DNA of 64,000 nucleotides from Chloroflexota bacterium (GTDB taxonomy: Bacteria > Chloroflexota > Anaerolineae > UBA1429): assembly GCA_021372475.1 (NCBI GenBank), contig JAJFUJ010000127.1, positions 24,654-88,653 on the forward strand. The letters are read 5' to 3'. How positions within the stretch are numbered: position 1 is the first letter of the stretch; each line of letters opens with the position of its first letter. Below the pieces are notes generated by a model. That model was given only the letters and a program-made list of their open reading frames with translations. It did no database searches and had not been told where the DNA came from. This document shows positions 20,695 through 45,873 of the stretch, in pieces. Made by a program: the position numbers and the translations under genes.

Positions 20695-20768
<74 letters not shown>

Positions 20769-20771
20769 CAG

Positions 20772-29297: not shown

Positions 29298-29535
29298 GAG
29301 GGTGTTAAAGTATCCAATTGGAGATATCTTTGTGCCCGAAAAGACGGGTTGCGAACTCGCATAGCATTTCCGCACAAGCAGGGATACAATTGAGTCTTGC
29401 TCTTATTCTTGTTACTATATGATATATTCCATTATCCCTCAGATTGATACTGGATTCTGGCCTGCACCGGAATGACGCTTCCTGTTTCCCGGCGGGCGAG
29501 TATAAGGGCAGAATTTCTTTTTCAACACCCCCTCC
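29298..29535 (+). repeat. Copy 1 of a ~240-bp intergenic repeat with imperfect terminal inverted repeats (GAGGGTGTTAAAG ... CTTTTTCAACACCCCCTC). MITE-like element or structured RNA.
   Basis: Aligned by eye with 40564..40802. Long conserved blocks: GAGTCTTGCT-TTATTCTTGTTA, ATATGATATATT, ATACTGGATTC-GGCCTGC-CCGGAATGACGCTTCCTGTTTCCC, GTATAAGG, CTTTTTCAACACCC. Confidence 0.5.
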
Positions 29536-29545
29536 GCATACTCGT

Positions 29546-29574
29546 TTGACCGACCACTATCACAGAGTTATACT
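29546..29574 (+). promoter_or_regulatory. Strong sigma70-like promoter for the sugar operon: -35 TTGACC, 17-nt spacer, -10 TATACT.
   Basis: TTGACC at 29546-51 and TATACT at 29569-74, about 10 bp after the repeat end. RBS AGGGAG and ATG at 29606. Confidence 0.5.
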
Positions 29575-40029: not shown

Positions 40030-40497
40030 CTAAAGCGCCTGAGCACGGCGTACTGCATCTGTTTCTTCCTCGGAAAGACTGACGGCCGAATTCCAGTTAA
40101 GCAGTTGCTTGGCGTAAAAACGGGTATTGTTGCGCCCGTGCAGACTGGTGATGAGCACGCCGTTGCCTTCATTGGTGGCCAAGGCGAGCGCAAACGAAAG
40201 ATCGCCGCCGGTATCGTCATAAGGGTTAAAACGCACCAGGCCGACTCGATTCAAACACCGCTGCTGAGCCATATTGAGTGCCGCCAATTGGTGGTTTTGC
40301 TGGCCGATGTAGCTGCGCAGTTCATCGCGCGAATAACCGATGACATCGCCGTCCTCGGCTTGCATCTGCTGACTATGAGGCAGATGGGCGGCCAATTTGT
40401 TGAGACGGGCAATAGTGACAGCAAGCAAAACCGCCAGGACTAGTACTGCCGCCCCGAGTATGATAAACAATGCGGTATCCAGACTGATGGTCGGCAC
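40030..40497 (-). CDS. DUF4446-family protein with an N-terminal TM helix.
   Basis: N-terminal TM (ALFIILGAAVLVLAVLLAV); C-terminal region ...RVGLVRFNPYDDTGGDLSFALALATNEGNGVLITSLHGR... typical of DUF4446. Confidence 0.5.
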   Translation of the reverse strand: MPTISLDTALFIILGAAVLVLAVLLAVTIARLNKLAAHLPHSQQMQAEDGDVIGYSRDELRSYIGQQNHQLAALNMAQQRCLNRVGLVRFNPYDDTGGDLSFALALATNEGNGVLITSLHGRNNTRFYAKQLLNWNSAVSLSEEETDAVRRAQAL

Positions 40498-40563
40498 AGC
40501 ACGGCCCTCCCCCTCGATTTAGCGTCATTGTAAACCGCCAATGCTGATTGGTCAAGTCATTAA

Positions 40564-40802
40564 GAGGGTGTTGAAAAAGTATCCAACTAGAGACACTGTA
40601 GTGTCTGAAAGACAGGGTTGCAAACTCACAGATCAGTCCCCGCGTAAGCAGGAACCCATCCGAGTCTTGCTTTTATTCTTGTTATGATATGATATATTAC
40701 ACTATATATCAGATCAATACTGGATTCCGGCCTGCGCCGGAATGACGCTTCCTGTTTCCCAGTGGGCAAGTATAAGGAAAGAACCTCTTTTTCAACACCC
40801 TC
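40564..40802 (+). repeat. Copy 2 of the ~240-bp repeat, with near-perfect 14-16-bp terminal inverted repeats (GAGGGTGTTGAAAAAG ... CTTTTTCAACACCCTC).
   Basis: Same orientation and same internal conserved blocks as 29298..29535. Located directly upstream of the pstS promoter, about 70 bp from the divergent DUF4446 gene start. Confidence 0.5.
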
Positions 40803-40807
40803 GCAAC

Positions 40808-40835
40808 TTGACGCCTTGAAAAACCAATATAAAAT
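40808..40835 (+). promoter_or_regulatory. Sigma70-like promoter candidate for the pst operon: -35 TTGACG, 16-nt spacer, -10 TAAAAT.
   Basis: TTGACG at 40808-13 and TAAAAT at 40830-35. Only about 8 nt separate it from the annotated ATG at 40844, so either leaderless translation or a downstream in-frame GTG (40874) is the true start. Confidence 0.4.
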
Positions 40836-40843
40836 CGCCAGTA

Positions 40844-41818
40844 ATGAGAGAAGCATATCAATCCCAAAGACCTGTGCGCGCCGTTAGGTATGCGCTCGGT
40901 ACCTTATCTTCGCAAGGAACGCGTTTCAGGATTCCAGACAGGTGGATATACACCCTCGTAACACTAGCTTTTTTAGCTGCAACACTATTGGGCGGCTGCG
41001 CTCAAAACTCCTCTGAAGCTCCCCGGACGGGCGTTAGTCGGGTAATCATCAACAAAGGCTCGGATACCCTGGTGAATCTGGCCCTGGCGTGGGCCGAGGC
41101 GTATATGGCCGCTCATCCGGAGGTTTCCATTTCGGTAACGGGCGGTGGAACAGGCACGGGCATCACGGCGATGATTAACGGGACGATCGACATCGCCAAT
41201 GCATCGCGTAGCATCAAATCTGAAGAATTAGAACTGGCCACTAGTAAAGGGATGCAACCAACCGAGTTTACCGTGGCACTTGACGCCATCGCCGTGGTGG
41301 TCAATCCCAGCAATCCACTGGATCACATCACCCTGCAACAGCTCTCGGATATTTACACTGGCAAGATAACCAATTGGAGCGAATTGGGCGGTGAGGATCG
41401 ACCGATTGTGCTGCTCTCGCGCGAATCCAACTCAGGCACATATACTTACTTCCTGGAACACGTTGTTCGCCTGGGAGACGCCTCGAGCACCCTGCTGTTT
41501 TCACCGGATACGCTGCTGATGCCCTCTTCAGAAGGGATCAGCGTAGAGGTGCGCCAAAATCCCAACGCCATCGGTTATGATGGGCTGGGATATGTAACTA
41601 ATGACCAAAAGGTGCTGGCGGTGGCGCGCGATGCCAGCGGACCATATGTGCTCCCATCAGTCGATACTGTAAATGATGATAGTTATCCAATTGCACGAGC
41701 CCTGTATATATACACGCCCAACGAGCCGGCAGGTCAGATAAAAGAGTATATCGACTGGATCCTCAGCGACGGACAGAATTTGATCAGCAAACTCGGTTTC
41801 GTACCGTTGACAAAGTAA
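40844..41818 (+). CDS. pstS: Phosphate ABC transporter substrate-binding lipoprotein PstS.
   Basis: Lipobox LLGGC after a hydrophobic signal segment; PBP type 2 phosphate-binding motifs (KGSDTLVNLA..., SGTYTYF). Start uncertain: ATG 40844 or in-frame GTG 40874. Confidence 0.85.
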   Translation: MREAYQSQRPVRAVRYALGTLSSQGTRFRIPDRWIYTLVTLAFLAATLLGGCAQNSSEAPRTGVSRVIINKGSDTLVNLALAWAEAYMAAHPEVSISVTGGGTGTGITAMINGTIDIANASRSIKSEELELATSKGMQPTEFTVALDAIAVVVNPSNPLDHITLQQLSDIYTGKITNWSELGGEDRPIVLLSRESNSGTYTYFLEHVVRLGDASSTLLFSPDTLLMPSSEGISVEVRQNPNAIGYDGLGYVTNDQKVLAVARDASGPYVLPSVDTVNDDSYPIARALYIYTPNEPAGQIKEYIDWILSDGQNLISKLGFVPLTK

Positions 41819-43606: not shown

Positions 43607-44383
43607 TTGGCCGGTAAAATGGACCATACGCTTATCAAAATCCGCATCGAAAACATAAACTTTTTCTATGGCGGCGTGCAGGCGCTCAAGGATGTAAGCA
43701 TCGATGTGCCGCTGCATGCCGTGACCGTCTTTTTCGGCCCAGCCGGTGGCGGCAAAACGACCTTGCTGCGGCTCATCAACCGTCTGAACGATATGGTGGA
43801 TAACATCAAACTGAGCGGCCACGTGTGGCTGGACGGCCAGGATATCTATGCCCCCGGTACGAACGTGCCGCGCTTGCGCCGGCGTATCGGGATGGTGTTT
43901 GCCCTGCCCCTCCCGCTGCCGGGCACCATACGCGAAAATGTCATCTATGGCCCCAAACTGGCGGGTATTCGCCAGCAGGCGCGGCTGGACGAACTGACGG
44001 AATCGAGCCTGCGGCAGGCCGCGCTGTGGGATGAGGTCAAGGACCGCTTGAACACGCCCGCCAACCAGCTCTCCGGCGGCCAGCAGCAGCGTTTGTGCAT
44101 CGCACGCAGCCTGGCGCTCGAACCCGAAGTGCTGCTCCTGGACGAGCCCACTTCCGGGCTCGACCCGGTCTCGACGGCCAAAGTAGAGCAATCGCTTCTG
44201 GAGCTGAAACAGCGTTACACGATTATCATTGTGCCGCATAATGTGCAGCAAGGGGCGCGCATCGCGGATTACGCCGGCTTTTTCCTGATGGGCGAGTTGA
44301 TCGAAGCGGGCGCAGGCCGCGATGTATTCACTCGCCCGCGCAATAAGCAAACTGAGGATTATGTAACGGGGCGGTTCGGCTGA
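43607..44383 (+). CDS. pstB: Phosphate ABC transporter ATP-binding protein PstB (copy 1).
   Basis: Walker [10 protein letters not shown], signature [13 protein letters not shown], Walker B LLLDEP. Pst-specific conserved N-terminus (...[18 protein letters not shown]...). Confidence 0.9.
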
Positions 44384-45147
44384 TGGACAAGTTTACCATT
44401 GAGCAGCTCGATGTGTATTACGGGCGCAAACAGGCGCTGCGCGGCGTATCGCTGGCCATCGCCACACGCCAGATTACCGCGCTCATCGGGCCTTCGGGCT
44501 GCGGGAAATCCACTTTTTTGCGCTGCCTGAACCGCATGAATGATACGATTCCTAACGTGCGCATCAGCGGCCAGGTGCGGCTTGACGAGCAGGATATCTA
44601 CGGCCCAAGGATGGATGTCGTCGAACTGCGCCAGCGGGTTGGAATGGTCTTCCAGCGTCCGAACCCCTTCCCGCAATCCATCTATGACAACGTGGCCTTT
44701 GGACCGCGGGTACTGGGGCTGCACCATTCTAATTTGAATGATGTCGTCGAACAAAGCTTGCGCGGCGCCAGCCTATGGGACGAGGTGAAGGACAGCCTGC
44801 GCGAAAACGCGCTGAGCCTTTCGCTTGGGCAACAGCAGCGTTTATGTATCGCCAGGGTTATTGCCGTCAAGCCGGAGGTTATCCTGATGGATGAGCCGGC
44901 CTCAGCGCTTGACCCTATCGCGACCCTTAAAATTGAGGACTTGATGCACGAACTGGTCACCGAATATACCATCATCATCGTAACCCATAACATGCAGCAA
45001 GCTGCGCGCGTCTCTGATGAGACCGCATTTTTTATGGTGGACCACGACCAGGTAGGAATCCTGGTGGAGCACGGGGCTACTAAACAGATTTTCACCCAAC
45101 CGAAGGACGAGCGCACGGAAGGATACGTTACCGGTCGTTATGGGTGA
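44383..45147 (+). CDS. pstB: Phosphate ABC transporter ATP-binding protein PstB (copy 2, tandem paralog).
   Basis: Walker [10 protein letters not shown], signature [13 protein letters not shown], Walker B ILMDEP. ATG overlaps the copy-1 stop (ATGA). Confidence 0.88.
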
Positions 45148-45189: not shown

Positions 45190-45873
45190 ATGTTGAGAGT
45201 AGCATTTCATACGGAACTCGATCGGCTACATGAGCAAGTGGCAGAACTGGGCACAATGGTGGAGGCGGCCATTCGTAAGGCCGTGATCGGCCTGAAGGAG
45301 CGCGACCTCAAGGCAGCACACCAGGTAATTGCGGATGACGTGCAAATCAACAGCAAGCGCTTCAAGATCGAGAACGATATCCTGGTGCTGATTGCCACCC
45401 AGCAGCCATTGGCCGGCGACCTGCGCAACCTGGCTGCCATGCTCGAAATCATTACCGAACTGGAACGCATCGGCGATTACGGCAAGGGTATCTCGAAAAT
45501 CAACCTGATGATCGGCGACCAGCCGCTCATCAAACCGCTGCAGGATATACCGCGAATGGCCGACCTATCCCTGGAGATGCTGCGACGCGCCTTGAATGCG
45601 TATGCCACCCTCGACATCAACGAGGCGCAGCAGGTGCCGACCCTCGACGACCAGGTGGATGGCCTGTATAACCAGGTTTACCGCGATTTGATTGCTTATA
45701 TTATCAACAATCCCACCACTATGGAGCAGGCTAATATGCTGATGTGGGTAGCGCACAACCTGGAACGCGCCGGTGACCGGGCCGTCAACATCTGTGAGCG
45801 CGTGGTGTTTGTGGCCAGCGGGCGAATGGAAGAGTTCGACTCGCACTCCGCCGACAAGCTGCCGGCAGGCTGA
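45190..45873 (+). CDS. phoU: Phosphate transport system regulator PhoU.
   Basis: Two PhoU repeats (…ERIGDYGKGI… / …LERAGDRAVNICE…); 227 aa. Confidence 0.88.
   Translation: MLRVAFHTELDRLHEQVAELGTMVEAAIRKAVIGLKERDLKAAHQVIADDVQINSKRFKIENDILVLIATQQPLAGDLRNLAAMLEIITELERIGDYGKGISKINLMIGDQPLIKPLQDIPRMADLSLEMLRRALNAYATLDINEAQQVPTLDDQVDGLYNQVYRDLIAYIINNPTTMEQANMLMWVAHNLERAGDRAVNICERVVFVASGRMEEFDSHSADKLPAG

Follow-up and report, generated by a model that had tools for sequence, protein, structure and literature searches.

The region between the divergent DUF4446 and pstS genes, in a 64-kb stretch of DNA from an uncultured member of the Chloroflexota (64,000 nucleotides, the whole of which is hereafter called the window), is occupied by a 239-bp non-coding foldback repeat, the second of two copies that the window contains. 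This repeat is probably a non-autonomous element of the kind known as miniature inverted-repeat transposable elements (MITEs), inserted neutrally between two divergent promoters that already existed. The original prediction, which described a 239-bp repeat with nearly perfect inverted ends, was right on the anatomy: the terminal inverted repeats of this copy are perfect over 16 nt, with 207 nt between the arms. It had also suggested that the repeat was recruited to contribute regulatory sequence to the phosphate-starvation (pst) operon, and this proposal is not supported, since the orthologous loci described below show the very outcome that had been named beforehand as speaking against it. The element and its ends are located as follows:

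40564-40802, plus strand: element copy 2, the 239-bp non-coding, MITE-like foldback repeat, defined by its terminal inverted repeats and by empty orthologous sites.
40564-40579, plus strand: left terminal inverted repeat, GAGGGTGTTGAAAAAG, all 16 nt of which (100%) are complementary to 40787-40802.
40787-40802, plus strand: right terminal inverted repeat, CTTTTTCAACACCCTC, located by inverted-repeat search.

Evidence for an insertion is provided by loci that lack the element. The genes and promoters required for this comparison are:

40030-40497, minus strand: DUF4446 gene (Pfam PF14584, E 1.2e-30).
40527-40555, minus strand: divergent DUF4446 promoter TTGACC-17-TACAAT, located by promoter scan.
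40808-40835, plus strand: pstS promoter TTGACG-16-TAAAAT, located by promoter scan (10/12 matches) and kept in element-free loci.
40844-41818, plus strand: pstS (Pfam PBP_like_2), probably with a leaderless mRNA.

Relatives of the pst locus were found via PstS homologues. The closest one is GCA_040961035.1, whose PstS is 89% identical and which is represented by contigs L033 and L165 at the pst locus (L165 being found via the DUF4446 orthologue) and by contig L037 at a sugar-operon locus; two Logan contigs, L163 and L164, end short of the element. More distant relatives, with PstS about 76% identical, are L034 (GCA_054641895.1) and L035/L036 (Logan SRR36271382, GCA_054606755.1). These last loci have the same gene order as the window (DUF4097, a 318-aa gene, DUF4446 and the divergent pstSCAB-pstB-phoU) and no element. 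Their intergenic region reads CATTGTAAAC-N13-TGGTCAAGT-(10 nt)-AACTTGACG-N16/17-TAAAAT-N8-ATG, so that the pst promoter retains its TTGACG-N16/17-TAAAAT-N8-ATG arrangement with unchanged spacing, and the DUF4446 promoter block CATTGTAAAC-N13-TGGTCAAGT is conserved in L034 and L036. Since both promoters are present in element-free loci, both exist without the element, and the pst promoter pre-dates the insertion. The position of the element corresponds exactly to the 15-nt gap between the two -35 boxes, which in the window are now about 250 nt apart. In the element-free genomes the two promoters stand back to back, with -35 hexamers only 15 nt apart (L034 5838-5896; L036 5921-5990), and their GTCAAGT ... 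ACTTGAC forms a 7-bp inverted repeat that could alternatively be read as a dimeric operator.

GCA_040961035.1 carries the element at the same pst site, contig L033 starting within it and contig L165 ending within it. Joined through their 38-nt overlap, these contigs yield a copy 2 of 258 bp, just outside both ends of which lies a perfect 14-bp direct repeat, CATTGGACGTAACT (0/2000 shuffles). Removal of the element and of one 14-mer from this sequence leaves GGTCAAGT-CATTGGACGT-AACTTGACG, equal in length to the real empty sites. The absence of a visible duplication in the window can be attributed to the shortening of both of its copies by small deletions, the remnants being:

40558-40563, plus strand: eroded left copy of the target-site duplication, CATTAA, where the relative has CATTGGACGTAACT.
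40803-40808, plus strand: eroded right copy of the target-site duplication, GCAACT, where the relative has CATTGGACGTAACT; its first 8 nt have been lost in the window.

The other copy shows an equivalent pattern of filled and empty sites. The features involved are:

29298-29533, plus strand: element copy 1, downstream of the stop codon of a short-chain dehydrogenase gene and upstream of the sugar-operon promoter.
29546-29574: sugar-operon promoter TTGACC-17-TATACT, located by promoter scan and also present at the empty site in L161.

The sugar operon encodes an L-fucose/arabinose-isomerase-family protein, an aldolase and a sugar kinase. Copy 1 is 83% identical to copy 2 in a 161-nt ungapped core and 80% identical over all aligned columns, and its inverted repeats are imperfect (13 nt, 85%). 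Both copies are on the same strand, as had been noted, each is oriented like its downstream operon, and nhmmer and blastn found no further copies in the 64-kb window. GCA_040961035.1 has the element at the same junction, where its contig L037 ends within it, while the locus is empty in L161/L162, with 18 nt from the stop codon to the same promoter. Searches for the element elsewhere gave no match in plasmids by blastn, and two further element-specific patterns gave none in viral contigs.

A different, 154-bp element was observed in the spacer between the dehydrogenase gene and the sugar operon of GCA_054606755.1 (L159 3451-3604, also L160 509-662). It has the same termini, GAGGGTGTGGAA ... TTCCACCCTC, around an unrelated internal sequence, which holds a CCCTCTCCC-AAA-GGGAGAGGG hairpin and no CGTC hairpin. 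Similar termini are also present on copy 1 and on the copies of GCA_040961035.1. The combination of the same termini with a different interior is the pattern expected of one transposase acting on the ends, which can be written in short form as follows:

Terminal sequence, short form: GAGGGTGTKGAAAAAG.

The way in which the element changes is in agreement with a neutral insertion. Between the window and GCA_040961035.1, four-fold degenerate sites of pstS, pstC and the dehydrogenase gene are 84-90% identical, and the element itself reaches 81% and 87% between orthologous copies, which also show several indels, whereas the promoter block running from AACTTGACG to the base before the ATG is identical at 38/39 positions between the window and L033. 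The element appears to drift at about the neutral rate, and selection is not indicated on most of it.

These data bear directly on the proposal that the element supplies cis-regulatory sequence to pst, as an UP-like block, as a site for a Pho regulator or as an insulator between the divergent promoters. This idea could account for the placement of the element at the two loci, where its end lies 5-13 nt ahead of a strong -35 box and its orientation is that of the downstream operon, although the orientation shared by two loci is a coincidence with a 50% chance, and the promoter and its spacing are kept where the element is missing. As a result of the 8-nt deletion in the window, moreover, the right arm, CTCTTTTTCAAC, which is rich in T, covers positions from about -41 to -56 with respect to the pst promoter, and UP elements act at about -40 to -60. 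Furthermore, the insertion spreads the -35 boxes from 15 nt to about 250 nt, which could relieve promoter interference. Against this stand the contrast between the synonymous-like rate of the element and the nearly invariant promoter, and the nature of the AT-rich block that had been named as UP-like. That block does exist, at 40680-40713, but, situated some 95-128 nt ahead of the -35 box (40808), it is too far away for the role assigned to it, and it is the centre of the element's own palindrome:

40685-40716, no strand: central AT-rich palindrome (the proposed UP-like block), with 13-nt arms (40685-40697 and 40704-40716) that are 92% complementary and 6 nt apart.

A search for Pho-box-like CTGTCAT-N4-CTGTCAT repeats, allowing up to 3 mismatches, gave none within thousands of bases of the pst promoter, in agreement with the lack of a PhoB-type box noted in the original prediction. 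The near-consensus -35 box of the pstS promoter is unlike those of classical PhoB-dependent promoters. A regulatory contribution of the element to pst is regarded as unlikely, and the neutral insertion is preferred. For annotation purposes, the pst operon would be best described as having an ordinary ancestral sigma-70-type promoter and a probably leaderless pstS, the upstream repeat not being a phosphate-control element.

The promoter of pstS, with TTGACG at 40808-40813 and TAAAAT at 40830-40835, begins 5 nt past the element, as had been proposed from the sequence, and places the ATG at 40844 only 8 nt past the -10 box. The same distance, exactly 8 nt after TAAAAT, is found in four lineages (the window, L033, L034 and L036), with a frame open to the lipobox cysteine, while the other reading frames past TAAAAT carry stops. 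No Shine-Dalgarno sequence precedes this ATG. As regards a start at a downstream GTG, the other option that had been considered, in the window and L033 no in-frame alternative start occurs before the signal peptide except the GTG at codon 11 of the window, which is GCG in L033. Taking these observations together, it is most likely that the pstS mRNA is translated leaderless. The N-terminal extension of PstS, of about 30 aa, precedes a lipoprotein signal peptide (lipobox LLGGC; window 40844-40990) and is poorly conserved, its length and sequence varying among relatives, with the start always being the ATG 8 nt past the -10 box.

Downstream of pstS, on the plus strand, follow pstC, pstA and pstB. 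Two tandem genes for pstB-like ABC ATPases come after pstC/pstA, the first at 43607-44383 and the second, inferred from the annotation of relatives, at 44383-45147. A phoU gene at 45190-45873 was inferred in the same way, the arrangement being the same in the relatives. Proteins of the window are deposited at NCBI as MCE5259034-067, and a tRNA-Val (CAC) gene at 20695-20769 is its sole match to Rfam or ARAGORN.

With respect to its internal structure, copy 2 is an imperfect palindrome over its whole length (score of the sequence against its own reverse complement, 82; shuffles, -7 +/- 16), and its G+C content is 45%, as compared with 59% for the whole window. From left to right, the element consists of an inverted repeat, a right-pointing hairpin, an AT-rich spacer of about 60 nt, a left-pointing hairpin and the second inverted repeat, with about 50 nt between the first inverted repeat and the forward hairpin and about 40 nt between the reverse hairpin and the second repeat. 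A mini-open reading frame (ORF) of 25 aa (MTLPVS...) is found in both copies (40742-40819 and 29472-29549, plus strand), its ATG lying within the 3' arm of the hairpin and its TGA within the downstream -35-like hexamer; the relative's version is lengthened to 31 aa by an 18-nt insertion that preserves the frame. This mini-ORF was judged to be spurious as a gene, because a ribosome-binding site is missing, the ATG directly adjoins the hairpin and the sequence of the mini-ORF is not conserved. Apart from it, no ORF is conserved between the two copies. A six-frame protein query of the element returned no relatives at E <= 1e-3, a threshold looser than which might have shown short matches.

Alternatively, the element could function as, or give rise to, a structured RNA, which would be a small RNA or else a processed module of a 5' or 3' untranslated region; its hairpins would then act at the level of RNA, for instance in RNase III processing or mRNA stabilisation, as has been shown for the Correia elements of Neisseria and for repetitive extragenic palindromes (REPs). 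Both strands are indeed predicted to fold very strongly (z = -6.2 and -8.3), but any DNA palindrome gives the same result. Among the stem positions, both partners have changed in a few pairs, and several changes restricted to one side produce G-U pairs on the plus strand; however, the consensus fold of the four copies available, which are too few sequences for this purpose, has an unfavourable covariation term (+2.75), and the hairpins decay in 2/4 copies. The location of copy 1 directly after a stop codon means that read-through transcripts would include it, and REPs and MITEs have been reported to act as RNA elements (PMC3733652), whereas copy 2 lies between divergent promoters, with no known transcript across it. 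Neither a conserved internal promoter nor a terminator was detected. In Rfam, no family was found at either gathering or permissive thresholds, the best match being FtrB, with 21 bits against a gathering score of 66 (E 0.46), and this weak match aligns on the REP hairpin only. An RNA function for the element thus appears quite improbable, and a DNA element with transposon-like ends is still to be preferred.

The REP hairpin just mentioned is intact in copy 2. Together with its partner, it is located as follows:

40720-40747, minus strand: intact CGTC-1 REP / Ssn-related motif (SRM) hairpin, CGTCATTCCGGCGCAGGCCGGAATCCAG, with stem 40724-40731 / 40736-40743 and a 4-nt loop.
40629-40659, plus strand: decayed partner hairpin in opposite orientation, CAGATCAGTCCCCGCGTAAGCAGGAACCCAT, which aligns to the right hairpin when the latter is reverse-complemented.

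The intact hairpin has an 8-bp stem and a predicted single-stranded DNA fold of -8.9 kcal/mol (z = -4.2). It contains the Neisseria dRS3 consensus, ATTCCC-N8-GGGAAT, and differs from the Neisseria NTS consensus by 2 substitutions, which amount to one compensatory base-pair swap. It also fits the CGTC-1 class (PMC3733652), since its tag is CGTC, its stem begins with AT, its loop has 4 nt and its tail is CCA. The published SRM pattern has exactly 2 matches in the window, one per copy, as compared with 0.63 expected from shuffles. The motif was identified through dRS3, a literature search on the hairpin's peptide translations having given no match. Judged from its sequence, the inner hairpin of copy 2 is a CGTC-1 REP / Ssn-related motif of the dRS3/NTS kind. 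In copy 1, the corresponding SRM, at 29450-29477 (minus strand), barely folds (-1.4 kcal/mol). In the four copies (two in each genome) the right hairpin lies at edit distances of 2, 4, 6 and 7 from NTS, and only 2/4 have a stable fold. The partner hairpin of copy 2 is 8 edits from NTS, a value reached by 1/200 shuffles, and that of the relative's copy 1, AGCATTCCCGCGCAAGCAGGAATCCAT, is 4 edits away.

Outside the window, the 25-nt core of the hairpin, GGATTCCSGC-N3-6-GCSGGAATGAC, was found in at least 120 viral or proviral contigs of IMG/VR (L039-L155), with 154 instances among the matches listed, as against a chance expectation estimated at about 2. Among the same matches, the flanks are unrelated between contigs and many hairpins are base-for-base like that of the window; the hairpin often precedes a ribosome-binding site and ATG at close range, or forms part of an array. 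Some of these contigs also have sister variants in its vicinity, namely GTCATCCCCGCG...CGCGGGGATCC and GTCACTCCCGCG...GCGGGAGTC. In one of them, L149, a convergent pair of hairpins 329 nt apart encloses a 103-aa ORF with a single GIY-YIG domain (PF01541, E 2e-16), a layout that matches the published NTS-ssnA-NTS arrangement (PMC11893778). Empty convergent pairs, with gaps of 50-61 nt, were observed in L069, L099, L105, L136, L139, L141 and L147.

It has been established that SsnA-type GIY-YIG nucleases bind and cut NTS/SRM sites in single-stranded DNA, the cut falling about 3 nt upstream of CGTC (PMC11893778). Taking this into account, it could be argued that the mobile unit is the convergent hairpin pair itself, a miniature of the hairpin-ssn-hairpin arrangement spread by an Ssn-type GIY-YIG single-stranded DNA nuclease or by another hairpin-directed enzyme, and that the outer inverted repeats are no more than the outermost part of the palindrome. 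Convergent pairs separated by 50-61 nt do recur in unrelated contigs, with the pair in L149 flanking a GIY-YIG gene; the NTS-ssnA-NTS layout has been likened to an insertion sequence (PMC11893778); REP dimers within larger palindromes are known (PMC3733652); and the homology between the window and its relative breaks at the 5' flank of the hairpin, near the SsnA cut. However, the insertion boundaries and the 14-bp duplication are at the outer inverted repeats and not at the hairpins, the L159 element shares the termini without such a hairpin, and a motif scan of the 64-kb window revealed no GIY-YIG ORF. Moreover, Ssn is not known to mobilise DNA (PMC11893778). It seems, therefore, very improbable that the hairpin pair was the unit that moved, and the insertion of the whole element through its outer ends remains the preferred explanation.

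The two genomes with filled sites also provide information on how the copies change with respect to each other. In both window copies, the segment 3' of the right hairpin (plus strand) is ACGCTTCCTGTTTCCC, and the two copies of the relative have in its place a longer stretch, rich in G+C, which contains a small hairpin of its own (L033 53-95 and L037 10400-10441; counterparts in the window, 40746-40770 and 29476-29500). The loop of this small hairpin is inverted between the relative's two copies (CACGC-GCA-GCGTG and CACGC-TGC-GCGTG). The left parts, on the contrary, follow orthology, copy 1 of both genomes sharing a 3-nt gap in the inverted repeat. Since the left parts are orthologous and the right parts genome-specific, homogenisation of the latter must have taken place inside each genome, presumably through conversion by other copies, a pattern indicative of concerted evolution. 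The point at which homology breaks is close to the predicted Ssn cut site.

This observation allows a more speculative variant to be formulated, in which the element would be an ssn-less miniature of a hairpin-ssn-hairpin cassette with transposon-like ends, which spreads Ssn target hairpins in Chloroflexota. A continuing process in which single-stranded DNA is cleaved at the hairpins and one copy then converts another would fit the replacement, in both copies of the relative, of the hairpin-side segment near the predicted cut site, as well as the joint change of the two inverted-repeat arms in the relative's copy 2. Although we regard this variant as unlikely, if true it would represent the first natural example of CGTC/SRM repeats, which lack a dedicated transposase, moving and being homogenised.

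Several observations weigh against a simple neutral insertion of a MITE-like element and have to be considered together. Only one of the insertions shows a clear target duplication: the ends of copy 1 match at only 5/6 positions (CTCATA / CGCATA), a similarity that a local-alignment test did not find significant, and the L159 element has no visible duplication. In addition, 14 bp is unusually long for the target duplication of a MITE. Ends of the GAG... type are a feature of IS5-like elements and long duplications one of IS4, IS1634 or IS1202-type elements, but no transposase family is assigned on this basis. Only two copies per genome were directly observed. A search of the window and of a few relatives' contigs revealed neither an autonomous element nor a transposase bounded by these termini, nor any other occurrence of the termini themselves. 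The sharing of the right segment within each genome is not predicted by the neutral drift of independent loci and needs conversion. Finally, both arms of the inverted repeat in copy 2 of the relative have changed from T to G at position 9, reflecting either a compensatory change or arm-to-arm correction of the palindrome; this, together with double changes in a few stem pairs, suggests a maintained structure.

Despite these points, the sequence of events that best accommodates the observations can be proposed, of which the anatomy, the limits of the insertion, its distribution among relatives, the 14-bp duplication, the neutral divergence and the identity of the hairpin motif are directly shown by the sequences. 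The whole unit would have been inserted before the split of the window's lineage from its closest sampled relative, its target being the 15-nt gap between the sigma-70-type promoters of DUF4446 (minus strand) and pstS (plus strand). A transposase recognising the termini GAGGGTGT(T/G)GAAAAAG would have moved it, and 14 bp of the target, CATTGGACGTAACT, would have been duplicated in the process. The insertion was tolerated probably because both core promoters stayed intact. Since then, the element has evolved in a nearly neutral manner, with most hairpins decaying and both copies of the target duplication of the window being eroded by small deletions, while pstS would continue to be transcribed from its ancestral promoter. 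The hairpins may be passengers or the remnant of a hairpin-ssn-hairpin cassette, and the element would have no regulatory role at present.

A possible relationship with a repeat in a Planctomycetota metagenome-assembled genome, which gave 7 matches to the inner 18-mer GGAATGACGCTTCCTGTT of the element, was also considered and attributed to chance, there being no similarity beyond the 18-mer and 500/500 flank shuffles being as good. About 17 chance matches of this 18-mer were estimated for the genome collection; in the metagenome collection it gave 11 unrelated singletons, and in viral contigs no match. The Planctomycetota repeat (Dive96_bin1.64; L001-L004, L013, L015 and L017) is an unrelated sequence of about 120 nt present in at least 7 contigs, with a long hairpin (GCCACTC...GAGTGGC), two alternative flank types per side and inverted ends, GCCACGGATGAACACGGAT...

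When compared with known systems, the element shares with the bacterial MITEs (Correia/NEMIS, ERIC, RUP and Nezha) a size within the range of 70-300 bp, terminal inverted repeats of the 15-30-bp class and the lack of coding capacity. It also shares with them an intergenic location near promoters, the existence of filled and empty orthologous sites, a target duplication and the ability to fold into a long hairpin. It differs from them in the length of that duplication, which is 14 bp here, TA in Correia and 2-10 bp in most MITEs, as well as in carrying internal REP-type hairpins and in not having an evident outward promoter or IHF site.

The CGTC-1 REPs, to which Neisseria dRS3 and Rickettsia RPE-6 belong (Di Nocera et al. 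2013, PMC3733652), resemble the hairpins of the element in forming inverted dimers with a spacer of 20-100 nt (PMC3733652), and CGTC dimers embedded in longer palindromes have been described in Halothiobacillus neapolitanus and Anabaena variabilis (PMC3733652). In contrast to these, the tags here face outward, the dimer belongs to a unit with inverted repeats and a target duplication, and the motif is not high-copy as far as visible, its only 2 instances in 64 kb being both in the element. Similar intergenic repeats associated with dRS3-type hairpins are the neisserial intergenic mosaic elements (NIMEs), but these form arrays of units each of which is flanked by dRS3, while here the hairpins lie inside a single foldback unit with its own repeats.

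With the NTS/SRM sites (Nat Commun 2025, PMC11893778), the hairpin of the element shares the 5' GTC and the C after the palindrome, both critical for Ssn cleavage and binding (PMC11893778). It differs in that no ssn gene is found in the window and in that the motif is decaying in 3/4 copies examined. In Neisseria, a change of the stem sequence that keeps the hairpin abolishes the activity of the enzyme (PMC11893778); thus, a different cognate enzyme would be needed for the hairpin of the element.

The 2013 survey found CGTC REPs in 5 phyla, Chloroflexi not being among them (PMC3733652). The element would therefore combine known kinds, a MITE and a CGTC REP/SRM, with a hairpin type that is new for Chloroflexi with respect to that survey. 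A hairpin of the dRS3/NTS type, studied mainly in Neisseria and other Proteobacteria, now appears nearly base-for-base in uncultured Chloroflexota, and its presence within a unit bearing the hallmarks of a transposon suggests one concrete route by which such hairpins could move.

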